From the NCBI GenBank assembly GCA_041690135.1, contig JAWLHY010000002.1, positions 448,001 to 512,000 of the forward strand: a DNA stretch of 64,000 nt, read 5' to 3'. The notes below the pieces were generated by a model that was not told the origin of the DNA, did no database searches, and saw only the letters and a program-made list of their open reading frames with translations. The position numbers were made by a program, and so were the translations under genes. Positions 24,673-37,370 of this stretch are shown here, piece by piece; within the stretch, counting starts at the first letter, position 1; the number at the start of each line of letters is the position of its first letter. The stretch is from Armatimonadota bacterium (GTDB lineage Bacteria > Armatimonadota > SYMT01).

Positions 24673-26760
24673 ATGAGTGCAAACACCCCCGCAGAAACTC
24701 CGTACCCGCCCCGGGAAGCGCTCCGGGTCCCGGAGCTTCCCACTCCGAGCTGGGGGCTGGGGGGCTGGCTGTACCGCGGGGGCTCGCCGGAGCATGCCGC
24801 CCACGTGGATGATCAGGCGCGGCCGTGGTACCTCGTCCTGTGGCTCACCGGAGTCGACTACTTCTCCACCCTGGGTTACCAGCCGGGGATCGCGCTGCTC
24901 GCGGCGGGCGCGCTCTCTCCCGTGGCCACCCTCATCCTGATCCTGGTGACGCTCTTCGGCGCGCTGCCGGTCTACGCCCAGGTGGCCCGCCATTCCTACA
25001 GCGGCCAGGGGTCCATCGCCATGCTGGAGCGACTCCTCTCCGGCTGGCGGAGCAAGCTCTTCGTGCTGGTGCTCCTCGGTTTTGCCGCGACCGATTTCGT
25101 TATCACCATGACCCTCTCCGCGGCCGACGCCGCCGTGCACCTGGTGGAGAACCCGCTGGTGGCGGAGTACCTGCACGGTGGTCAGTTGTGGATCACGCTG
25201 GCGCTCCTCGCCCTACTCGCGGGAGTTTTCTTGAAGGGGTTCCGGGAGGCGATCGGCCTGGCCGCCCTGATCGGCATCCCTTACATCCTGTTGAACCTGC
25301 TGGTGGTCATCCGTGGCGGCATCGAGATTGCCCGGCACCCGGAGTACCTCCAGGCCTGGACCTCCGCCCTCGCGGTGCAGGGGGATTGGAGCGCCGTGGT
25401 GCTGGTGGCGGCCCTGGTGTTTCCCAAGCTGGCACTGGGGCTCAGCGGGTTCGAGACCGGCGTGGCCGTTATGCCGCTGGTAAAGGGGGACCCAGACGAC
25501 CGCCGCTGGCCCTTGCCGGTGGGGCGGATCCAGAGCAGCCGGAAGTTGCTGGCCGCCGCCGCGCTGATCATGAGCGTGATGCTGCTGACGACCAGCCTCG
25601 TCACCACGCTGCTGGTGCCGGAAACGGCCTATCGAGAAGGGGGGCCCGCGGCGGGTCGAGTGATGGCGTACGTCGCCCACCGGCTGATGGGTGACTTCGT
25701 TGGTACCATCTACGACATCTCCACGATCCTGATTCTCTGGTTCGCGGGCGCTTCGGCGATGGCGGGGCTGTTGAACCTCGTTCCCCGGTACCTGCCGCGC
25801 CTGGGAATGGCTCCCCGCTGGGTAGCCTACGTGCGGCCGCTGGTGTTGATTCTCTTTGCCATCAACGTGATCGTGACGCTCGTCTTCCGGGCGGAGGTGG
25901 AAGCGCAGGCGGGGGCCTACGCGACCGGGGTGTTGTTCCTGATCTTTTCGGCGTCCGTCGCCGTGACACTGGCGCTCTGGCGCGAGGCCCGTGAGGGCCC
26001 TTCCGCCGCCGTGACGCCGGCTCTGGCGGTGAAGGGGCTGGCGGAGCCGGAAGACCCAACCGGCATCCGCCCACGACGGTTCCCATGGGGAGCCATCTAC
26101 TTCGGCGGCATCAGCCTGGTGTTCTTTTACACCCTGGCCCAGAACATTCACGAGCGTCCGGACGGCATCATCATTGCCTCGGTCTTCATTGCCGGCATCA
26201 TTCTCCTCAGCCTGATCTCCCGGTACCGCCGGTCCACGGAACTGCGGGTCGAGCGGATCGACCTCGCCGATGCGGAGTCGTGCCGGCTGTGGGAGTCCAT
26301 GCTGGGCAAGAAGGTCAACCTGGTTCCGATCAAGCACTGTACGGCCGAGGGAATCCGGAGCAAGACCGAGGAGATCCGCAATTACTACCGGGTCGAGGGA
26401 CCGCTTGCCCTCCTCCACGTGCGGCTCCGTGACGACCGGAGCGACTTCTCCGGCGAGTTGTCCGTTGCGGTCACGCGTGTGGGCGACGACTATCTCATCC
26501 TGGTGGATGGCGCCGTCGCCATCGCCAACACCATCGCCTACCTCAGTGAACTGCTCGACCCCATCAGTGTCTTCCTGGGGTTGACGCGCCAGAATACGGT
26601 GGCGCAGGCGATCCGCTTTCTCCTCTGGGGCGAGGGAGAGACCGGCATCCGGGTCTATGAGGTCCTCCTGCGACACTGGGAGGAGACCCCCGAGGACGAC
26701 GTACGCCCGCGCATCTTCCTGATCAGTGACGGCTCCGAACCGGCAACGACCGGCGCTTAG
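24673..26760 (+). CDS. APC superfamily transporter with C-terminal soluble domain
   Basis: WLTGVDYFSTLGYQPG, FPKLALGLSGFETGV, AGAYATGVL; multiple TM helices. Confidence 0.85.
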   Translation: MSANTPAETPYPPREALRVPELPTPSWGLGGWLYRGGSPEHAAHVDDQARPWYLVLWLTGVDYFSTLGYQPGIALLAAGALSPVATLILILVTLFGALPVYAQVARHSYSGQGSIAMLERLLSGWRSKLFVLVLLGFAATDFVITMTLSAADAAVHLVENPLVAEYLHGGQLWITLALLALLAGVFLKGFREAIGLAALIGIPYILLNLLVVIRGGIEIARHPEYLQAWTSALAVQGDWSAVVLVAALVFPKLALGLSGFETGVAVMPLVKGDPDDRRWPLPVGRIQSSRKLLAAAALIMSVMLLTTSLVTTLLVPETAYREGGPAAGRVMAYVAHRLMGDFVGTIYDISTILILWFAGASAMAGLLNLVPRYLPRLGMAPRWVAYVRPLVLILFAINVIVTLVFRAEVEAQAGAYATGVLFLIFSASVAVTLALWREAREGPSAAVTPALAVKGLAEPEDPTGIRPRRFPWGAIYFGGISLVFFYTLAQNIHERPDGIIIASVFIAGIILLSLISRYRRSTELRVERIDLADAESCRLWESMLGKKVNLVPIKHCTAEGIRSKTEEIRNYYRVEGPLALLHVRLRDDRSDFSGELSVAVTRVGDDYLILVDGAVAIANTIAYLSELLDPISVFLGLTRQNTVAQAIRFLLWGEGETGIRVYEVLLRHWEETPEDDVRPRIFLISDGSEPATTGA

Positions 26761-27023: not shown

Positions 27024-29894
27024 GTGAAGTATCGAAGCGCGTCAGTTCTTACGGGAGCGATCGCAGCCTCCGGGCTGCTCTCGGCGGCTCTGCCCGCGTC
27101 GGCAGCCCCGCGGCGCGTCTCCTCCAGCGCACGCAAGGCGCCGGCAAGCCCCCGCAACTCCAAAGCGACAGCGCGGAAACCGGTGTCCCGGAAGCCCGCG
27201 CCTCGCAAGCGCACTCCACTGGCCATGCCGGCGGGGCCGGTACTGGAGGCGCTCCAGATCCAACCAGCAACCGTGACCCTGGAGGGCCGCCGTGCCCAGC
27301 AACTGCTGGTGGTCACCGGCCGGTACTCCGACGGCTCCCTTCGGGACCTTTCCACGCAGGTGAAGTACGCCACGGACCAGGCGCGGGTGGCCGCCATCTC
27401 AGCCACGGGTCTCGTCAAACCCGTGGCGGACGGGGAGACGGTGGTCAAGGCCTACTTGGGGAAGATCGGCGCCAAGGTTCCGGTAACGGTGGCCGCGGCG
27501 GCCGACTCGGCGCCTCCCAGCTTCATGCGGGACGTGGTGCCGGTGTTGACCCAGGCCGGCTGCAACTCGCTCTCCTGCCACGGCTCGCCGGTGGGGAAGG
27601 CCGGGTTCAAGCTCTCGATGTACGGCTTCGAGCCGAACCTCGACTTCGAGGCGATCGTGAAGCAGGAGCGGTCCGTGCCGGAGAAGGGGAAGCGGATCGA
27701 CCTCGCCGCGGCGAACCGCAGCTTGTTCCTGATCAAGCCGACCATGCAGACGCCCCACCAGGGCGGCATGCGGTTCAAGATCGGCTCCCCGGAGTACCGC
27801 ACCCTGGAAGCCTGGCTGAAGTCCGGCGCGCCGATGGACCCGCTCGACCCGCTGCCGGTCGTCACTCGCGTGGAAGTGCTGCCGGCGGAGCGGGTGCTGC
27901 CGAAGGCCGGCGCGAAGCAGCGCCTGGTGGTGATGGCGCATTACTCGGACGGCACGGCTGAGGACGTGACCCACAAGGCGATCTACGCCAGTAACGACGA
28001 CTCGGTGGCGACTCCCGACCCGGAAGGCGTCACCGCGGCCGGAGTGGGGGAGACGATCGTCCTCGCCCGCTACCTGGGGCGGGTCGGCACGGCGCAGTTC
28101 CTCATCCCCCAGCCGGATCCGGTGACGGACCGCGACTACACGGGTTTCCAGCCGGTCAACTTCATCGACCAGTTGACGCTGGCGAAGTGGAAGAAGATGC
28201 GGTTCGTCCCCTCCGAGCCCGCCACGGACGCCGAGTTCCTCCGCCGCGTCTCCCTGGACCTCACCGGCACCCTGCCCACCGCCGACGAGACGCGCGCGTT
28301 CCTGGCAGCGTGTGATGCGGAACGCCGGGTTGGTGCCTCGAGCAAAGCGCACGGGAGCAGTGGGGCCGGGGGGCCTGGTGAACAGAACAGGTACGGGTTG
28401 ACAGAACGCAGGGGGGTAGGGGGGCAGAGAGCGGGGGAGAGACAGGCTCTGCGCACCGCAGCAGCCCGTGATCCCCAGGGTTCCCCTTACGCAATACGCA
28501 ATACGCAATACGCAGCGGGTTCCCAATACGCAATACGTAACACGCAGTACGCAGACCCCGGAACCACCGCGCCCGCCCTGAAGACGCGTGCCAAGCTGGT
28601 CGAAGAACTCCTGAACCGCCCCGAATACGCCGACTGGTGGACCCTCTTCTGGGGCGACAACCTGCGGAACAACAGCCGCCTGATCCAGGCCAACGGCGCG
28701 AAAGCCTACCGGGACTGGATCCACAAGAACGTGGCGGAGAACCGGCCCTACAACGAGTTCGTCCGCGAACTGGTGACCGCCCGCGGCAAGAACTTCAGCA
28801 ACGGCGCCGTGAACTTCTTCCGCGTGGCGCGCAACGCCCAGGAGCAGGCCGAGCAGACGGCGCAGGTCTTCCTGGGGGTCCGTCTCCAGTGCGCCAACTG
28901 CCACAACCACCCTTCGGAGAAGTGGACCCGCACGAGCTACCACCGGTTCGCGGCCCTGTTCTCGAAGACGACTTCGAAGAACGTCGGCAAGGGGGAGGTC
29001 GAGATCCTGGCCAACCCCAAGGGGTCCTACCGCAGCCCCATCACCAACCGTCCCCTGGAGCCGGCCGTGCTGGAGGACAGCCCGCCCGACATGCCGGAAG
29101 ACCGGGACTACCGCGAGGTCCTGGGCGAATGGCTGGTAAGCCCCGAGAACCCGCTCTTCGCCCGCAACCTGGTGAACCGCGTCTGGGCGCAGCTCTTCGG
29201 GAAGGGGATCATCGACCCCGTCGACGACGTCCGCGTCACCAACCCGCCGGTAAACGAGGCGCTCCTCGACGCGCTGGCCCGCGATTTCGTGGCGCACAAC
29301 TACGACGTGAAGCACCTGCTGCGGACCATCGTCAGCTCGCGCACCTACCAGCTATCCGTCCGGGCCAACCGGTGGAATGGGAAGGACCGCCAGAATTTCT
29401 CACGGGCCTACCACCGCCGGCTCAAGGCGGAAGCCCTGCTGGATGCGTACTGCCAGGTAACGGACCAGCCGGAGAGCTACCGCGGCCACCCGGCCGGAAC
29501 CCGCGCCATCCAGTTGGTCGACAACCGGGTCGCCAGTTACTTCATGGACATCTTCGGCCGGCCCCGGCGCGAGGTGGTCTGCGCCTGCGAGCGAGAGGAG
29601 ACGGCCACCCTGACCCAGGCCCTCCACCTGATCAACGGCGACACGCTCAACCGGAAGATCGCCGCCTCGAAAGGGAGAGTCGCGAGCCTGCTGGACCCCG
29701 CCGCCAACCCGCCGTGGTCCGATGCAGCCGTGGTCGAGGAGCTGTACCTTGGGTCGCTCAACCGGTTCCCTACGCCGGAGGAGAGTGCGGAGGCGGTCCG
29801 GCAGATCGAGGCCGCCGGCAAGGAGCGCCGCGCCGCTGTTGAGGACCTGCTCTGGGTCCTGCTCAATTCCACGGAATTCCAGTTCAATCACTGA
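27024..29894 (+). CDS. DUF1549/DUF1553 protein with two Ig-like (Big_2) domains; carries a ~90-aa in-frame insertion
   Basis: [47 protein letters not shown]-terminal EFQFNH. Confidence 0.9.
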   Translation: MKYRSASVLTGAIAASGLLSAALPASAAPRRVSSSARKAPASPRNSKATARKPVSRKPAPRKRTPLAMPAGPVLEALQIQPATVTLEGRRAQQLLVVTGRYSDGSLRDLSTQVKYATDQARVAAISATGLVKPVADGETVVKAYLGKIGAKVPVTVAAAADSAPPSFMRDVVPVLTQAGCNSLSCHGSPVGKAGFKLSMYGFEPNLDFEAIVKQERSVPEKGKRIDLAAANRSLFLIKPTMQTPHQGGMRFKIGSPEYRTLEAWLKSGAPMDPLDPLPVVTRVEVLPAERVLPKAGAKQRLVVMAHYSDGTAEDVTHKAIYASNDDSVATPDPEGVTAAGVGETIVLARYLGRVGTAQFLIPQPDPVTDRDYTGFQPVNFIDQLTLAKWKKMRFVPSEPATDAEFLRRVSLDLTGTLPTADETRAFLAACDAERRVGASSKAHGSSGAGGPGEQNRYGLTERRGVGGQRAGERQALRTAAARDPQGSPYAIRNTQYAAGSQYAIRNTQYADPGTTAPALKTRAKLVEELLNRPEYADWWTLFWGDNLRNNSRLIQANGAKAYRDWIHKNVAENRPYNEFVRELVTARGKNFSNGAVNFFRVARNAQEQAEQTAQVFLGVRLQCANCHNHPSEKWTRTSYHRFAALFSKTTSKNVGKGEVEILANPKGSYRSPITNRPLEPAVLEDSPPDMPEDRDYREVLGEWLVSPENPLFARNLVNRVWAQLFGKGIIDPVDDVRVTNPPVNEALLDALARDFVAHNYDVKHLLRTIVSSRTYQLSVRANRWNGKDRQNFSRAYHRRLKAEALLDAYCQVTDQPESYRGHPAGTRAIQLVDNRVASYFMDIFGRPRREVVCACEREETATLTQALHLINGDTLNRKIAASKGRVASLLDPAANPPWSDAAVVEELYLGSLNRFPTPEESAEAVRQIEAAGKERRAAVEDLLWVLLNSTEFQFNH
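28308..28580 (+). repeat. In-frame insertion element, copy 1, with TACGCAA heptamer arrays
   Basis: Interrupts the DUF1549 AFLA...RAKLV motif; tacgcaa-like x4 at 28488-28515 and x4 at 28527-28554; homologous to 34804-35127. Confidence 0.8.
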
Positions 29895-29906
29895 AGGACT
29901 TACCAC

Positions 29907-31226
29907 ATGAGAAACCTGGTTCTTAATCGCCGGGCTTCGGCGAACTGCGAGGGAGTGAGTCGCCGGGACCTGCTGCGGGTCGGCACGCTGGGGGCATTCG
30001 GGCTGTCGCTGCCGGAATTCCTCCGGATGCGCCAGGCGGCCGCGGACAGCAAGAAGGCGGTCCGCGACCGCAATTGCATCCTGCTGTTCATGAACGGCGG
30101 CCCCTCGCACATCGATACCTGGGACCCCAAGCCCGACGCGCCCGCCGAGTACCGGGGCGAGTTCAATCCGATCTCCCCCAGCGGCGCGGAGTTCCAGATC
30201 AGCGAGCACCTGCCCCGGATGGCGGAGGTCGGCAACCGGTTCTCCGTGGTGCGGTCGCTCACCAGCCCGGAGGGAAGCCACGAGCGGGCCTGCCACTACA
30301 TGCTCACCGGCTACCGGATCCTGCCGACCCTGGAGTATCCCGCCTACGGCTCCGTGATCCTGAAGGAGAAGGGCTTCAAGTCGAGCCTGCCGCCGTACAT
30401 CGCCATCCCCTCCACCCTGCGCGGCGGCACTCCCGGCTACCTCGGCACGGTTTACCAGCCGTTCTCCGTCGGCAGCCCGAGCAGCAAGGATGGCTCGATC
30501 AGCGTCCGGGACGTGAATTCACCCGTGGGAGATGCCCGGATGCGTGCCCGCGCCGAGCTTCTCCGCCGCCGCGACGCCGCCTTCCGGAACGAGGACCCGG
30601 ACGGCACCCTGGCCACGCTGGACGAGTACTACCAGCGCGCCTACGACCTGGTGAACTCTTCGGCCGCGAAGAAGGCGTTCGACCTCTCAACCGAGCCGGA
30701 CGCGCTGAAGGACCGCTACGGCCGGCACAGCTTCGGGATGGGATGCCTGCTGGCCCGCCGCCTGATCGAGGCGGGGACCCGCTTCGTCACGATCTCGCTC
30801 GGCGGCTGGGACACTCACAGCAAGAACTTCCCGAACCTGCGCGATAAGCAGTTGCCGCCGCTCGACGCCGGCTTCGCCTCCCTGATCGAGGACCTTTCCG
30901 ACCGCGGCCTGCTGGACGACACGCTGGTCGTCTGGATGGGCGAGTTCGGCCGGACCCCCAAGATCAACAAGAACGCCGGCCGCGACCACTACCCCAAGTG
31001 CCAGAGCGTGGTCTTCGCCGGCGGCGGCACCCCGGGCGGCCAGGCCATCGGCCGGAGCGACAAAACGGCGAGTCTCCCCGAGGAGCGCCCCGTCACCCCG
31101 GAAGACATGGCCGCCACGATCTACAGCATCCTCGGCATCGACGGCCACAAGACCTACACCACCTCCACCGGCCGTCCCATCCGTATTGCGGAGAAAGGTG
31201 AAGTTATCAACGAGTTGACAGGCTAA
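29907..31226 (+). CDS. DUF1501 domain protein
   Basis: SRRDLL, GGPSHIDTWDPKP, CLLARRLIEAG, GWDTH, GEFGRTP, GRDH. Confidence 0.92.
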   Translation: MRNLVLNRRASANCEGVSRRDLLRVGTLGAFGLSLPEFLRMRQAAADSKKAVRDRNCILLFMNGGPSHIDTWDPKPDAPAEYRGEFNPISPSGAEFQISEHLPRMAEVGNRFSVVRSLTSPEGSHERACHYMLTGYRILPTLEYPAYGSVILKEKGFKSSLPPYIAIPSTLRGGTPGYLGTVYQPFSVGSPSSKDGSISVRDVNSPVGDARMRARAELLRRRDAAFRNEDPDGTLATLDEYYQRAYDLVNSSAAKKAFDLSTEPDALKDRYGRHSFGMGCLLARRLIEAGTRFVTISLGGWDTHSKNFPNLRDKQLPPLDAGFASLIEDLSDRGLLDDTLVVWMGEFGRTPKINKNAGRDHYPKCQSVVFAGGGTPGGQAIGRSDKTASLPEERPVTPEDMAATIYSILGIDGHKTYTTSTGRPIRIAEKGEVINELTG

Positions 31227-31254
31227 CCGTACTCCTAACTGCGTTTCGCCCGTG

Positions 31255-31300
31255 GGCTCCCCCTCTCTGCGTCGGAGAGGGGGCGGGGGGTGAGGTTACT
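31255..31300. repeat. REP-like palindrome (CCCCTCTC-tgcgtc-GGAGAGGGG...GGGGTGAGG)
   Basis: Identical to 41843-41889 except for a 1-nt indel. Confidence 0.85.
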
Positions 31301-31404
31301 TTGGTCACCGCAGCCGTTAAAGGTAAACCCCATTCCATCACTCGCCCATTCGCCCAGCCTCGGTCCCCATCAATTCGCGTCCATTCGTCCCATTCGCGGA
31401 TCGC

Positions 31405-32220
31405 TCAGGCCCGGAAACCCAGCAGCCGCGCGAGGTTGAGTCCCTTGACCTTGGCCCGGTCCGCTTCGGAGTACTCCGGCATGTGCGCGTCCACGATGCT
31501 CGGGCTACCGCTCCCCCACACCAGGCGGTCCGGCCCGAACTCCCGGATCACCCGCCGGGTGAAGGGCCGGGCGCTTGCGTAATGGGGGGCGTCGGTCGCG
31601 AAGTGGTTGAGGCCGGAGAGCTTCATATAAACGTTGGGGAGAGACGCCAGCTCGAGCACGTCCGCGTACTCCACCGCGTCCCCCATGTGCGGTTCGGCCA
31701 GGTGGTCGATCAGGACGGTGCACCCTGGAAACGCCCGGATCGCCTCCCCGGCTTGCCGGGCATAGTTCGGCCCGATGTGCAGCTCCACGATGAGGCCCAG
31801 GTCCACCGCCGTCCCCCAGAGCGCCCGCACGCCGGTGTCCGCGAAGCTGTGCAGGTACATCTCCTTGCCGCGGTGAGCGTGGAACCGCATGGCGACCATC
31901 CGCGGCTCCCGCGCCGCGAGATCCCGCAGCTTACGCGGGGCGTCCGGGTCGTCGGGGTAGTAGAGGAAGGTGCCGCGCAGGCGCTCCGGCTCACGTTCCA
32001 GGCATTCCAGAATCAGCCGGTGGTCGTCCCCGTAGGGCTCCGGGTGCACGATCACCGCCCGGTCGATCCCCTCCCGCTCCATCCGCTCCAGGTAGGCGCC
32101 CAGCGGGTCCGCGGGTTGCTCCGACACGTCCGGTCGGTACGCGGCACGAGGGTGGAATGGGTATCGCTCCAGGTCCGGGCTGAAGATGTGAGCATTCCAT
32201 TCGATGATCATCGAGCTCAT
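31405..32220 (-). CDS. Amidohydrolase family protein (Amidohydro_2)
   Basis: EWNAHIF, GIDRAVIVHP, LIDHLAEP, PNVYMKLSG, FGPDRLVWGS. Confidence 0.85.
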   Translation of the reverse strand: MSSMIIEWNAHIFSPDLERYPFHPRAAYRPDVSEQPADPLGAYLERMEREGIDRAVIVHPEPYGDDHRLILECLEREPERLRGTFLYYPDDPDAPRKLRDLAAREPRMVAMRFHAHRGKEMYLHSFADTGVRALWGTAVDLGLIVELHIGPNYARQAGEAIRAFPGCTVLIDHLAEPHMGDAVEYADVLELASLPNVYMKLSGLNHFATDAPHYASARPFTRRVIREFGPDRLVWGSGSPSIVDAHMPEYSEADRAKVKGLNLARLLGFRA

Positions 32221-32316
32221 AGACTACCTTTTGTTTCTCTCCGTTCGATCCAAACTCGCGCAACCGGTCGCACGACGGGGTGTCAGAAGCGCCGTCACTT
32301 CCTGGAGAGTGTTCCA

Positions 32317-35300
32317 ATGGCGGAGCGCGAAGGCACAACCTGGCGAACGGCCGCGGCGGCAGGCGTGATCCTGGTGCTTCCGGCCTCGCTGGCCCTGGTT
32401 TCGGGCGCCCGAGCCGCGGCCCCGGCGGTCTCTCCAAGCGCTTCTCCTTCGCAGCCGCGGACGGCGCCTGTTGCCCCGGTAGATTTCAACCGCGACGTTC
32501 GCCCGCTCCTCTCCGAAAACTGCTTCACCTGCCACGGCCCGGACGCGAACCAGCGACAGGGCAACCTGCGGCTTGACCTGCGCGAGGGGGCGCTCGCGGA
32601 CCTGGGTGGGCGCCGGGCCGTGGTTCCCGGCCAGCCGGCCCGAAGCGAGCTGCTGCGCCGGCTCCTGACCCACGACGCCGACCTGCGGATGCCGCCGGCC
32701 GCCACGGGAAAGCGCCTCACGACGGCCCAGGTGGAGACGCTCCGGCGCTGGATCGCGCAGGGAGCGAAGTGGCAGCAGCACTGGTCGCTGATCCCGCCGG
32801 TCCGGCCGCCGCTGCCCGCGGTGAAGCAGAAGAGTTGGCCCCGGAACGCCCTGGATACCTTCGTGCTGGCGCGCCTGGAGCGGGAGGGCTTGAAGCCGTC
32901 CCCGGAGGCGGACCGCGCCACGCTGATCCGGCGGGTGTCCCTGGACCTGACCGGTATCCCGCCCACGCCGCGGGAAGTGGACGCGTTCCTGGCCGACCGC
33001 TCCCCGGATGCCTATGAGAAGGTGGTCGGCCGCCTGCTGGCCTCACCCCGGTTCGGCGAGCGGATGGCGGCGCGGTGGCTGGATGCGGCGCGGTATGCGG
33101 ACACCAACGGTTACCAGAGCGACGGCGAGCGGCACATGTGGCGCTGGCGGGACTGGGTCATCGACGCCTACAACCAGGACATGCCGTACGATCGCTTTAC
33201 GGTGGAGCAGATCGCCGGGGACCTCCTGCCCAACGCCACCCTGGAGCAAAAGATCGCCAGCGGCTTCAACCGGAACCACCGGGGCAACGGCGAGGGCGGC
33301 ATCATCCCGGAAGAGTACCTGGTGGAGTACGCGGTGGACCGGGTGGAGACCACCAGCACCGTATTCCTGGGGCTCACCATGGGCTGCGCGCGCTGCCACG
33401 ACCACAAGTACGATCCGCTCACCCAGCGCGACTTTTACCGGTTCTACGCCTACTTCAACAACATCCCGGAGCGCGGGCGGGCGAACAAGTTCGGCAACTC
33501 GCCGCCGATGATCCCGGCCCCCACGCGCGAGCAACAGGCCGGCCTCACCCGGCTGGAGCAGCGGCTGGCGCGGGCGGAACAGCAGTTCCAGGAGCTCTCG
33601 AGCCAGCGCACGGCACAACAGCAGGCTTGGGAACGGACCCTGGCCGGAGCGGAGATCCTCGACTGGAGCCCGACCGATGAGCTGGAATGCCGGTTCGGTC
33701 TCGACGGTGACGCCCGACCCGAGGGGATTCCGCCGCAGCGTGGCCCGCTCCAGCCGCGCTTCGTGGATGGGGAGGCGGTGTTCGGTCCCGGTAGGGTCGG
33801 CCGGGCGCCGCAGTTCGATGGGCGCCGCTTCGTCGAGGCGGGTAACCTGGGGGACTTCGGCTTCTACGACCGGTTCACGCTGGCAGCCTGGTTCCGGGCC
33901 GACGACGCACAGGGGGGCACGATCCTCTCCCGGATGACCGATACGGCTCGGGCGGACGGCTACAGCGTGGTGCTGAAGGACGGCCGAATCCAGGTGAACC
34001 TGGTGAAGCGCTGGCTCGACGACGCTCTGCGATTGGAAACAGAGACCGCCGTGCGTCCGGGCGAGTGGCATCACGTGGCCGTGACCTACGACGGCACGCG
34101 CGTGGGGACGGGGGTGAAGGTCTACCTCGACGGGGTGCCGGTGAAGACGCGCCTCCTCCTCGACGAGTTGAACCAGTCGTTCAACAATCAGGAACCGCTG
34201 CGCATCGGGGCGGGCGGCGGGCCGAATGGGCGCTTCCGGGGCCAGATCGACGAAGTGCACGTCTACCGCCGCGTCCTCGACCCGGAAGAAGCGGCGATGC
34301 TGGCCGTCCCGGAGACGGTGACCGCCATTACCACCGTGCCGGCGCGGATGCGGAACCCCTCGCAGGTCGCCAAGATCGCCAACTGCTACCTGGAGCGATA
34401 CGCCCCCGAGCCGCTGCGCAAGAACCGCGAGGAAGTGATCCGGCTGCGCAAGGAGCGGGCCCGGATGATCGACTCCTTCCCGACCGTGATGGTGATGGAA
34501 GAGAAGCCGGTCCCGGCGGAGACGTTTGTCCTGATCCGCGGCCAGTACGACAGGCCGGGTGAAAAGGTCACGCGCGGGGTGCCGGCCAGCCTCCCTCCGC
34601 TGCCCGGAGCGGGCCGGAACGACCGCCTCGCCCTGGCGCGCTGGCTCGTCAGCCCCAACCACCCGCTCACCGCCCGCGTCGCCGTCAACCGCACCTGGCA
34701 GATGCTCTTCGGCGCCGGCCTGGTGAAAACCGCGGAAGACTTCGGCTCCCAGGGCGCCCTGCCCTCGCACCCGGAACTGCTGGATTATTTGGCAGTTCGC
34801 TTTGCCGGAGGCGCCGTGGAGGACAAGCCGGCTACGGTGACCCAAGCGCAAGGGGGTAAGGGTGCAGGGCGGAGGGGAGAGGGAGAGGCGGTTGCCCAGA
34901 ACCGGTACGGCTTGGCCGCACGCAAGGACCCAGGGGAGAAGGGAGGTAGGGGTAACCGAAATCTGCGAACCGCAGCTGCTTCTGACCCCAGAGGTTCGCA
35001 TTACCGGGTGCCCACTGGGCGACGCAATACGCAATACACGGCTGATTCGCGATCATCCTTCATCCTTCATCCTTCATCCTTCCGAACAGGCCCCCGATCC
35101 CCAGCCCCCAACCCCGGCGAAGGCCTGGGTTGGAGCACCAAGGCGCTCCTCCGCCTCATCGTCACCAGCGCCACCTATCGCCAGTCGTCGCGGGTGACGC
35201 CGGATCTGCTGGAGCGAGATCCCGAGAACCGGCTGCTGGCGCGGGGTCCCCGCTTCCGGTTACCAGCGGAGATGGTGCGGGACCAGGCGCTGACGGCGAG

Positions 35301-35874
35301 CGGGCTGCTGGTGGAGAAGGTGGGAGGCCCCTCCGTGAAGCCCTACCAGCCGCCGGGGATCTGGAAAGACCTGGCGGGCGGCGAGGACTACCAGCCCGGA
35401 ACCGGGGACGATCTCTATCGCCGCAGCCTCTACACCTTCTGGAAGCGGACCGCGCCGCCTCCCGCGCTCACGGCGTTCGACGCGGCGGGACGGGAAACAT
35501 GCGTGGTGCGGGAGTCCCGCACCAACACCCCGCTCCAGGCGCTCAACTTGATGAACGACGTGACCTATGTGGAAGCGGCGCGCGCCCTGGCCCAGCAGGT
35601 GTTGCGGGAGGGTCCCGCCACCGCGGAAGAGCGGTTGAGCCGGGTCTTTCGCCGCGTCCTGGTGCGCCGGCCGCGCCCGGATGAGCGCCGGGTCCTCCGG
35701 GAGGCGTTCGAGGCGCAGTTAAGCAGGTTCCGCAGCGATCGGAAGGCCGCGGCCGCCCTGGTCGCCGTGGGAGAGTCCCGGGCCGACCCGCGCCTCGATC
35801 CGGCCGAGCTGGCTGCCTACACCACCGTTGCGAGCCTGGTGTTCAACCTGGACGAAGCGGTCACCAAGGAATGA
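32317..35874 (+). CDS. Planctomycete cytochrome c / DUF1549 / LamG / DUF1553 protein; carries a ~108-aa in-frame insertion
   Basis: [34 protein letters not shown], Lam[29 protein letters not shown]. Confidence 0.92.
34804..35127 (+). repeat. In-frame insertion element, copy 2, with ACGCAAT and TTCATCC heptamers
   Basis: Interrupts the DUF1553 LLDYLAVRF...GWSTKALL motif; shares QNRYGL-x16-LRTAAAxDPxGS and RNTQY with copy 1. Confidence 0.8.
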
Positions 35875-37370
35875 GGAACACGCCGATGGAGGGGGATCCG
35901 CGTGCGGAGCTTGCAAGGCTCTTGAGCCGCCGGCAGTTGTTCGGCCAGGCAGGGTCCGGTGTCGGCCTGGCCGCGCTCGCCGCCTTACTCCAGAACGAGG
36001 GTCGCACGGCGCCGGCGCAACCGAAGGTCCAAGCTCAGACTGCCGCTGCTCCACCTGGTATGACGGCAGCCACCCACCCGGCGCGGGCCAAGCGGGTCAT
36101 CTACCTGTTCCAATCCGGCGCGCCCTCGCAGATGGACCTCTTCGACTACAAGCCGAAGCTCCGGGACCTGCGCGGGACCGAGCTGCCGGACTCCGTGCGC
36201 CAGGGCCAGCGGCTGACAGGGATGACCTCGCGCCAGGAAAGCTTTCCGGTGGCCCCCAGCCGCTTCGCCTTCGCGCAGCACGGCAAGAGTGGCGCCTGGA
36301 TCAGCGAGTTGATGCCGCACACGGCGCGGCTCGCGGACGAGCTGTGCTTCGTGAAGTCGATGCACACGGAGGCGATCAACCACGACCCGGCCGTCACCTT
36401 CTTCCAGACGGGAGCGCAACTGGCGGGGAGGCCCAGCATCGGCGCGTGGGTGGCGTACGGTCTCGGCAGCGAGAACCGCGACCTTCCCGCCTTCATCGTG
36501 CTGGTTTCGCAGGGCACCGGCAATCCCAACGACCAACCCCTCTACGACCGCCTGTGGGGGAGCGGCTTCCTTCCCACGCGCTACCAGGGGGTGAAGCTGC
36601 GGGCCGGGAACGAGCCGGTCCTGTACCTGTCGAACCCCGCGGGGCTGTCCGGCGCTGCCCGGCGGCGCTTCCTCGATGACCTCGCCCGGCTCAACCAGCT
36701 CAAGCTCAAGGAAGCCGGCGACCCCGAGATCCAGACGCGGATCGCCCAGTACGAGCTGGCGTTCCGCATGCAGGCCTCCGTGCCGGAGCTCACCGACGTC
36801 TCCCAGGAGCCGGAGCGGGTGTTCGAACGGTACGGACCGGAAGCCCGTAAGCCGGGCACCTTCGCCCGGAACTGCCTGCTGGCCCGGCGGCTGGCCGAAC
36901 GCGGCGTGCGGTTCATCGAGCTCTTCCATCGCGGCTGGGACCAGCACACCTCCCTGCCGAAGCAGATCGCCGGCCAGTGCCGCGACACGGACCAACCCTC
37001 GGCCGCCCTCCTCCTGGACCTCAAAGAGCGCGGGCTCCTCGACGACACGCTGGTCGTGTGGGGAGGCGAGTTCGGCCGCACGGTCTACTGCCAGGGCACG
37101 CTCACCGCGACCGACTACGGCCGGGACCATCACCCCCGCTGCTTCACCGTCTGGCTGGCGGGTGGAGGCGTGAAGCCGGGCATCTCCTACGGCGAGACCG
37201 ACGACTTCTCCTACAACATCGTGAAGGACCCGGTGCACGTCCACGACCTGCACGCCACGCTCCTCCACCTGCTGGGGGTGGAGCACACAAAGCTGACCTA
37301 CCGCTTCCAGGGCCGCGACTTCCGCCTCACGGATGTCCACGGAGAACTTGTACGCCCCATCCTGGCATGA
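35871..37370 (+). CDS. DUF1501 domain protein
   Basis: AKRVIYLFQSGAPSQMDLFDYKP, NCLLARRLAERGVRF, GWDQH, GEFGRT, GRDHH. Confidence 0.92.
   Translation: MRNTPMEGDPRAELARLLSRRQLFGQAGSGVGLAALAALLQNEGRTAPAQPKVQAQTAAAPPGMTAATHPARAKRVIYLFQSGAPSQMDLFDYKPKLRDLRGTELPDSVRQGQRLTGMTSRQESFPVAPSRFAFAQHGKSGAWISELMPHTARLADELCFVKSMHTEAINHDPAVTFFQTGAQLAGRPSIGAWVAYGLGSENRDLPAFIVLVSQGTGNPNDQPLYDRLWGSGFLPTRYQGVKLRAGNEPVLYLSNPAGLSGAARRRFLDDLARLNQLKLKEAGDPEIQTRIAQYELAFRMQASVPELTDVSQEPERVFERYGPEARKPGTFARNCLLARRLAERGVRFIELFHRGWDQHTSLPKQIAGQCRDTDQPSAALLLDLKERGLLDDTLVVWGGEFGRTVYCQGTLTATDYGRDHHPRCFTVWLAGGGVKPGISYGETDDFSYNIVKDPVHVHDLHATLLHLLGVEHTKLTYRFQGRDFRLTDVHGELVRPILA

Follow-up and report, generated by a model that had tools for sequence, protein, structure and literature searches.

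Translated repeat DNA at two helical turns of exported PSCyt2-PSD1 proteins in a genome of the Armatimonadota

Introduction

In a genome of the Armatimonadota (lineage SYMT01; GenBank assembly GCA_041690135.1), two genes of one protein family each carry a stretch of additional codons that is missing from their orthologues. The locus raises the question of what these stretches are and how they came to lie, in frame, at two different places in two proteins. The window analysed here comprises 64,000 nucleotides (contig JAWLHY010000002.1, positions 448,001 to 512,000 of the forward strand), and positions refer to it unless a contig handle precedes them. The original prediction had proposed an undescribed mobile in-frame module whose peptide is under selection. 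The analysis shows that the inserts belong to a genus-specific family of translated repeat DNA, assembled from short-tandem-repeat and hairpin elements of the source genome, and that these cassettes are located in two tight helix-turn-helix hairpins of exported PSCyt2-PSD1 haem-motif proteins.

The two inserts

Host gene 1 (27024-29894) encodes an exported protein of 956 aa in which Pfam matches and the translation of the open reading frame (ORF) reveal the domains Big_2, PSCyt2 and PSD1. Host gene 2 (32317-35874) encodes 1185 aa from this ATG, the predicted start, and combines PSCyt1, PSCyt2, Laminin_G_3 and PSD1; its reading frame is already open from 31483. Both genes and all features described below lie on the plus strand. 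PSCyt2 and PSD1 (DUF1549 and DUF1553) define a set of 77 paralogues in the source genome (9.1 Mb, designated G000). Two insertion sites are distinguished, site A at about position 52 of the PSCyt2 model and site B at column 64 of the PSD1 model. Site A is filled and site B empty in host gene 1, and the reverse holds for host gene 2.

Insert 1 (28308-28580, 91 codons) occupies site A. It starts with a left part specific to this site, CDAERRVGASSKAH, which is followed by the shared core and two heptamer tracts. The core (28364-28500, C2:476364-476500) was recovered by nhmmer at E 9.6e-28 and by the peptide profile at E 9e-25. The first heptamer tract is a perfect (ACGCAAT)x3 array (28488-28508), preceded by GGTTCC and read as YAIRNTQ; the second is degenerate and extends after 28508 to about 28556. 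Insert 2 (34804-35127, about 105-108 codons) occupies site B, at 62/65 of the PSD1 model. Its core (34881-35033, C2:482881-483033; nhmmer E 3.8e-24) contains an additional 12-nt piece within the first heptamer, as does the copy at C3:800111. A perfect (CATCCTT)x4 array (35053-35080), read as SSFILHP, and a C-rich right arm (35090-35117), for which PRSPAPNP was read off the sequence, complete the insert. This arm is the inverted counterpart of G-rich heptamer runs found at the left of many loops, with arm pairing demonstrated for shorter loops alone.

What had been read from the two genes at the outset was borne out: homologous in-frame inserts at two sites, a common motif, a codon usage unlike that of the hosts and 7-bp repeats at the insert ends, the last located on the 3' side in both cases. 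Translation of both host ORFs is free of stops across the inserts, and the inserts split the Pfam matches, namely PSCyt2 at ~52/54 in gene 1 and PSD1 at 62/65 in gene 2. Gene 1 has 126 aa over a span that is covered by 39 aa in insert-free paralogues, and gene 2 has 105 additional aa at PSD1 column 64. The motif QNRYGL-x16-LRTAAAxDPxGS...RNTQY is common to both inserts with an identical spacing of 16 residues, and a BLASTP comparison of insert 1 with insert 2 yielded 41% identity over 82 aa (E 4e-12 with composition adjustment). The homology of the two inserts rests on profiles and BLASTP, since a blastn search of both inserts against the genome gave no high-scoring segment pair between them at E 1e-3. 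The GC content at third codon positions (GC3) is 0.63 in insert 1 and 0.61 in insert 2, compared with 0.91 and 0.88 in the remainder of the respective gene.

The PSCyt2-PSD1 part of host 1 (residues 373-949; window 28140-29870) was modelled with AlphaFold2 (AF2) from a 41-row alignment, with a predicted local distance difference test score (pLDDT) of 87.1 and a predicted template modelling score (pTM) of 0.86. Insert 1 appears in the model as a low-confidence loop between helices 48-71 and 147-158, with pLDDT <50 for model residues 73-91 and 106-140. Site B of the same protein is modelled as a tight turn with helices 373-385 and 390-398 on either side. Judged from this model, both inserts sit at surface positions compatible with the fold.

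Copies of the cassette in the genome

Further copies, for which a search had been proposed, were found. The core family was defined at the DNA level by iterated nhmmer searches, which gave 50 matches in the genome at E 1e-3; 27 of them were long (at least 85 model positions) and fell in 25 ORFs. A profile built from 16 core peptides matched 37 places in the source genome and none in 40 other related genomes, including the six of the same family (0/6). A word-indexed search of 5.8e9 proteins retrieved solely the host itself and one paralogue, both from the source genome, and a DNA pattern that matches 10 copies there had 0 matches in genome and metagenome collections.

All 25 host ORFs of the core (~137 nt) are PSCyt2/PSD1 paralogues, 799-1515 aa long, and every copy lies on the coding strand. 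Reversed copies are absent (0/25), though 15 of 17 cores could be read through in antisense frame -2 without meeting a stop, and no full noncoding copy of the core occurred among the nhmmer matches in the source genome. Site B, counted as filled when the insert has at least 15 aa, is filled in 38 of the 77 paralogues, the longest insert measuring 129 aa. At site A, the PSCyt2 match is split in 13 paralogues, four of which contain the full core. The host frame is uninterrupted in 38/38 site-B loops and 17/17 cores. Both sites are preceded by a helix end of the type (F/Y/W)LA, and their flanks are otherwise unrelated. Separate origins of the four site-A cores were considered and dropped: an unconstrained tree scatters these cores, and their grouping together was not rejected (approximately unbiased test, p 0.08), so the claim is limited to one or more transfers between the two sites.

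The loops are mosaics of pieces. They begin with a G-rich part (TQGSKGAG or ARGQGPG) and one to three YGLAERRGA...GAGE units, and continue with an 11-residue segment, a heptamer-coded stretch and a C-rich right part, PSPQPPTPGPAEGL. The heptamer-coded stretch occurs as YAIRNTQ (from ACGCAAT), SSFILHP (from CATCCTT) or QLSIVNS (from CAATTGT). A third insert position was observed at PSD1 model column 144, where four paralogues of the source genome carry at least 15 aa. In addition, three clade-2 paralogues (C3:784642-786765, C7:94356-96338 and C3:631989-634238) have another site-A cassette, FL.EC...PRVET...GTRNF(D/N)..., which is partly coded by AAGGCAG heptamers.

Heptamer arrays and hairpins

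The building material of the cassettes is widespread in the source genome, which contains 278 perfect tandem arrays with a period of 6-8 and at least three units, 127 of them heptamers. The commonest are AACCTTC (28 arrays), AACACCCG (25), ACTCCT (18) and AATACGC (14). Most arrays fall between genes, often no more than some tens of bases from the start or stop of one (e.g. C1:332859-332879, C12:65543-65577 and C6:194797-194817). A crude rule, under which some PSD1 loops are mislabelled, sorted 94 of the 127 heptamer loci as noncoding or unclear. Counted by position, 29 of 127 are inside PSCyt2/PSD1 ORFs; these ORFs amount to 2.55% of the genome, and the enrichment is about 9-fold. Most of the 29 loci are within the PSD1 span and a few in PSCyt2 or the N-terminal region. 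The 3' part of the core is itself a GGTTCG-N3-4-(TACGCAA)n element, which elsewhere adjoins gene starts and ends in intergenic DNA. A scan with a GGTTC plus heptamer pattern gave 6 and 4 single matches in unrelated metagenome-assembled genomes, a number near the chance expectation for 596 Gb.

Inverted arrays form strong DNA hairpins in 5 of 38 loops (z < -2 against mononucleotide shuffles), for example (GGGGTCA)n...(TGACCCC)n and inverted CAATTGT, and some of these look nested. The median folding z of the loops is 0.29, and the core-carrying loops are not among the five. Terminal inverted repeats are missing from the core; G-rich and C-rich arms occur in some loops. No target-site duplication was seen in eight comparisons of filled and empty sites, in which diverged orthologue flanks may hide short ones. 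Nine matches to Y1_Tnp mark Y1-transposase-like genes in the source genome. A system of REP-associated tyrosine transposases (RAYT) and REP-derived hairpins (REPIN; REP, repetitive extragenic palindromic) was considered and set aside: no heptamer arrays lie beside the best three Y1 transposase genes, the search for transposases having covered the Y1 family.

Some further repeat loci were recorded. A 36-nt tandem repeat of 3.1 copies is found ~1.4 kb from a Y1-transposase-like gene (L214:3207-3318, C1 near 629.5 kb). The N-terminal regions of five paralogues of the source genome contain in-frame heptamer arrays, mostly AACGCCC, upstream of PSCyt2 (e.g. C9:329383-329403 and C11:145321-145348). 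Outside any PSD1 gene, the region C11:11600-17800 has repeated ...GFTAE..LRTLSPAERD...GS.YALRNTHY units in several ORFs and spacers together with many heptamer arrays, and may represent either intergenic DNA rich in repeats or one more locus that has been colonised. Matches resembling (ACGCAAT)n are located at the extreme ends of two contigs (C14:146-288 and C15:147-295); the assembly probably breaks at such arrays.

Orthologues and sister genera

The relatives compared were the sister genus (G005) and the genomes G001, G002, G004 and G006. All comparison genomes are drafts, orthology was assigned by best hits, and the comparisons of insertion positions are confined to one bacterial family. 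Alignment of the two hosts to their orthologues revealed clean empty sites for both. The orthologues of gene 1 in four sister-genus genomes lack the insert and pass from FLA directly to D..DKRAK, with 62-66% identity downstream of the insert. Those of gene 2 in G001, G002 and G005 run from LDWLA..F.. straight to GWD.K, leaving site B empty. The G006 orthologue of gene 2 (G006:C361) has a different site-B insert of ~45 aa with a TGNQKPE tandem repeat. In a PSD1-domain tree (FastTree, 246 columns) of 172 sequences from three genera, the sequences form mostly orthologous trios, and the paralogues are therefore older than the genera. The filled genes are dispersed over this tree, and the best foreign match is empty for 24 of the 38.

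Site B is not filled in one genus alone. In the sister genus, 19 loops with lengths of 47-65 aa occupy this PSD1 column with a different cassette, which consists of (GAGAGACR)n, then VRTAA, and then GGGTTCG with (CATCCYT)n or inverted GTCTCTC arrays. No loop of this genus matched the core peptide profile, and the sister genus keeps its own cassette even where the orthologue in the source genome is filled; at least seven orthologous pairs are filled in both. The motifs RTAA and GS.FI.HPSSF recur in its cassette and are common as DNA too (GGGTTCG with CATCCYT arrays, and an ACCGC core). G001 has one loop (23 aa) among 49, and G002, G006 and G004 have some PSD1 matches split at the same position. 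The PSD1 site is thus a hot spot in several genera of the family, occupied by differing sequences. Loops at the same sites in orthologues had been named as a finding that would speak for an ancestral feature; the position does recur, and the sequences that fill it differ.

Constraint on the peptide and on RNA

The use of different codons for identical residues, which the original prediction took as a sign of selection on the peptide, is real. Among 17 copies of the core, however, the pairwise divergence at codon positions 1, 2 and 3 amounts to 0.28, 0.29 and 0.32, and the differing codons thus reflect general divergence and not purifying selection. The ratio dN/dS, computed after Nei and Gojobori (NG86) over 49 codons of these 17 copies, is about 0.66. 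GC content is nearly flat over the codon positions of the cores (0.63/0.62/0.58) and of all 38 loops (0.65/0.65/0.63; intergenic proxy 0.61), compared with 0.66/0.49/0.88 in the PSD1 domain. The insert is predicted to be disordered. With near-equal divergence, this dN/dS, no adaptation in GC3, predicted disorder and a 3' part identical to an intergenic element, the claim of a selected peptide was not supported. Selection on the peptide would be weak, and six invariant columns and 38 open loops suggest that some constraint is left. An RNA element was likewise considered and rejected: no Rfam family matched, and RNAalifold on 16 copies gave neither covariation nor conserved structure.

Probable spread of the cassettes

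Sequence comparison indicates that the copies arose later than their host genes and do not follow host phylogeny. The same residue is encoded by the same codon at a frequency of 0.74 within the module and of 0.47 in flanking PSD1 columns, and module distance and host distance are uncorrelated (Mantel rho 0.09, p 0.22). The two closest module pairs differ by 11.6% and 15.6% of nucleotides and belong to host genes that are 10 and 25 kb apart, with PSD1 domains differing at 59-64% of residues. In the closest pair, on C11, nucleotide identity is raised over columns ~29-72 (0.79-0.88 at 49-72) and falls to 0.42-0.46 after column 73. Paralogous loops in the source genome share 70-88% nucleotide identity, with profile E values down to 1e-25, and are far closer to each other than to the orthologous loops of the sister genus. 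Around the site, filled genes are also closer to one another than each is to its own orthologue, which may reflect old co-conversion or structural co-adaptation.

Exchange between paralogues is, on balance, the probable mechanism and the best of those considered. After the genera had split, one paralogue would have passed its cassette to another, for the most part through ectopic recombination or gene conversion that used the conserved flanks. Such exchange would keep orientation and frame automatically and would favour neighbouring genes. At least one non-homologous transfer, by which the core moved between the sites in PSD1 and PSCyt2, would have to be added. The loop, disordered and weakly constrained, would then be selfish or neutral DNA that the host protein tolerates at permissive turns of its surface, with the frame kept open by selection on that protein, and would not serve as a selected recognition or cleavage tag.

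Several observations weigh against this account. Four pairs were examined for an identity tract that includes the flanks; the C11 pair has a clear one and the C23/C14 pair a partial one, so that clear tracts are few. Over the 16-20 columns adjacent to the loop, filled paralogues have no extra sharing of synonymous codons (0.47). Family-wide co-conversion of the flanks, a further possibility considered, thus left no sign at synonymous sites, and most conversion tracts therefore end at the loop borders or are old. Filled copies in both the source genome and the sister genus share the flank residues Y56, S59, V60, F61, S67, L71 and L74, which could represent structural co-adaptation and hence some function of the loop. 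The dN/dS value is below 1, and G12, L13, T32, Y43, N47 and Y50 are invariant in 16 copies, with seven further columns nearly so. The jump between site A and site B cannot be accounted for by homologous exchange. Finally, the tree does not fix the order in which the three genera branched, so that the change could be a gain or a loss.

A mobile module in the sense of the original prediction was upheld in so far as the cassette is multi-copy, in frame, present at two sites, absent from orthologues and spread independently of host phylogeny; its likeness to freely transposing elements is limited by its restriction to one family and one orientation. Since copies occur in one family and one orientation despite an open antisense frame, copying between paralogues fits better than random transposition. 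It is unlikely that the core is a non-autonomous mobile element, such as a miniature inverted-repeat transposable element (MITE), a REP or a relative of the Rickettsia palindromic elements (RPEs), which a trans-acting enzyme directs to a DNA motif or hairpin at two sites while host selection retains the in-frame, stop-free insertions. The strong and partly nested-looking hairpins in 5 of 38 loops, the GGTTCG and heptamer relatives dispersed in intergenic DNA, the nine Y1-transposase-like genes, the roughly 9-fold heptamer enrichment in the host family and the presence of the core at two sites with unrelated flanks, both after an (F/Y/W)LA helix end, all speak for such an element. Yet the core lacks terminal inverted repeats and its folding does not exceed that of shuffled sequences, the eight filled/empty comparisons revealed no target-site duplication, copies outside the family or in reverse are missing although the reverse frame is open, and the three best Y1 transposase genes have no heptamer array beside them; a distance of 11.6% between the closest copies gives no sign of current activity. 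In another reading, which we regard as quite unlikely, a dedicated process aimed at the family would install the loops, either by hairpin-directed insertion or by templated copying, where two structurally equivalent helix-turn-helix elements are encoded; the heptamer arrays inside the ORFs would act as contingency switches, and each genus would have its own cassette "dialect". If so, gain or loss of one heptamer unit, seven not being a multiple of three, would turn off or restore the PSD1 part in single members of this exported family of 77 genes.

It is very unlikely that selection acts on the peptide as such, for example as a loop for interaction, cleavage or modification that exported proteins display and whose function would explain both spread and retention. 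In favour of this, all 38 loops are open in a frame that is identical at both sites, 16 copies have six invariant and seven almost invariant columns, the presence of a loop goes with particular flank residues in two genera, the sister-genus cassette again contains RTAA and GS.FI.HPSSF, and dN/dS stays under 1; but the three codon positions diverge equally, the flat GC content is close to that of the intergenic proxy, the motifs common to both genera are shared as DNA too and occur in noncoding DNA, the insert is predicted to be disordered, orthologues manage without it, and from one genus to the other the loop content is exchanged entirely. The most improbable explanation, and one already disfavoured, is a loop that a PSD1 subfamily had from its ancestor and passed on vertically, with many losses and no spread. 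It would agree with inserts at the same PSD1 position in several genera (the 19 loops of G005 and the split matches in G002, G006 and G004) and with the about seven orthologous pairs filled in both G000 and G005. Against it, paralogous loops of the source genome are far more alike than orthologous loops of the two genera, module distance is independent of host distance, codons are shared far more within the module than in the flanks, and the core occupies a second, unrelated site as well.

Host genes and their neighbourhood

Each host gene is followed by a gene for a DUF1501 protein, at 29907-31226 for host 1 (Pfam match E 7e-110) and at 35871-37370 for host 2 (E 6e-160), both on the plus strand. 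Upstream of host 1, an ORF of 695 aa (24673-26760) matches no Pfam family at E 1e-3. Host gene 1 retains its CxxCH motif. A Foldseek search with the AF2 fold of its PSCyt2-PSD1 body returned 0 PDB matches at E 1e-3, and the PSCyt2 and PSD1 domains themselves have no PDB relative by sequence; the PSCyt2-PSD1 fold is structurally uncharacterised. A PDB relative of the hosts was also sought by sequence, and the sole weak match, the S-layer domain-containing chain 4qvs_A at residues 491-663 of host 2, was discarded.

Gene pairs of DUF1501 with PSCyt1/PSCyt2/PSD1 proteins are known from bacteria of the Planctomycetes-Verrucomicrobia-Chlamydiae (PVC) group (Kamneva et al. 2012, PMC3542564). Both hosts here share this architecture, each being followed by a DUF1501 gene, and differ in their loop insertions, of which the relevant passages of that article make no mention. 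A literature search on DUF1549/DUF1553, in which supplements were outside the scope, yielded no paper on insertions in such proteins.

Significance and comparison with known systems

In-frame selfish DNA within protein genes commonly counts as a peculiarity of Rickettsia, and the present case comes from a free-living bacterium with a large genome. Half of an exported family with 77 members bears translated repeat DNA at one helical turn, with cassettes particular to each genus and clean empty sites in the orthologues. The family thereby offers a natural map of two insertion-tolerant turns in an uncharacterised fold, a system in which to study how noncoding-like repeat DNA turns into protein sequence, and a case of concerted evolution limited to an inserted segment. 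It also holds a warning for annotation, as the low-complexity loops of PSCyt2/PSD1 proteins are repeat DNA and not features of the family.

Short tandemly repeated repetitive (STRR) heptamers belong to the known repeats of cyanobacteria, and intergenic TAACTGA repeats reportedly occur in Beggiatoaceae. Heptameric simple-sequence repeats are described as over-represented in Xanthomonas and Nostoc and as under-represented in coding DNA, in the portion of that survey that concerns them (PMC4692102). The source genome is similar to these in its many tandem heptamer families, mostly intergenic and near ORF ends (127 loci); it differs from that description in that 29 of the 127 loci are inside one protein family and are read in frame.

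Concerted evolution of paralogue segments by gene conversion is a general mechanism. The cassettes resemble it in a similarity that is higher within the genome than between orthologues, in the effect of proximity, in the preservation of orientation and frame, and in at least one sharp-ended tract. The homogenised piece here, however, is an inserted noncoding-like cassette and not the gene body, and the jump to a second site needs a further step.

The closest counterparts are found among elements that insert into genes. Intragenic MITEs and the ERIC (enterobacterial repetitive intergenic consensus) and BOX elements can form in-frame fusions, according to the section of a review devoted to them (PMC10969869), and are comparable as small non-autonomous repeats read through within a host ORF. 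For the core described here, in contrast, neither terminal inverted repeats nor target duplication nor a related insertion sequence was found, Y1_Tnp being the transposase family searched. RPEs are selfish repeats inserted in frame in protein genes (Ogata et al. 2000, 2002, as covered in PMC10969869). As far as that summary of them goes, they share with the core the dispersed repeat of ~150 nt, the in-frame translation, the intact host ORFs, the positions compatible with the fold and the absence from orthologues. In contrast to RPEs, which the same summary places in many unrelated genes, the core is confined to one family in 25 of 25 hosts, to two fixed positions and to one orientation. Moreover, it does not appear palindromic, the cassettes are mosaics with heptamer arrays, and the evidence points to copying between paralogues and not to transposition. 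The cassette thus adds a variant to the theme of selfish DNA in protein genes, one that is genus-specific, concerted and placed at two permissive turns of a single paralogue family.

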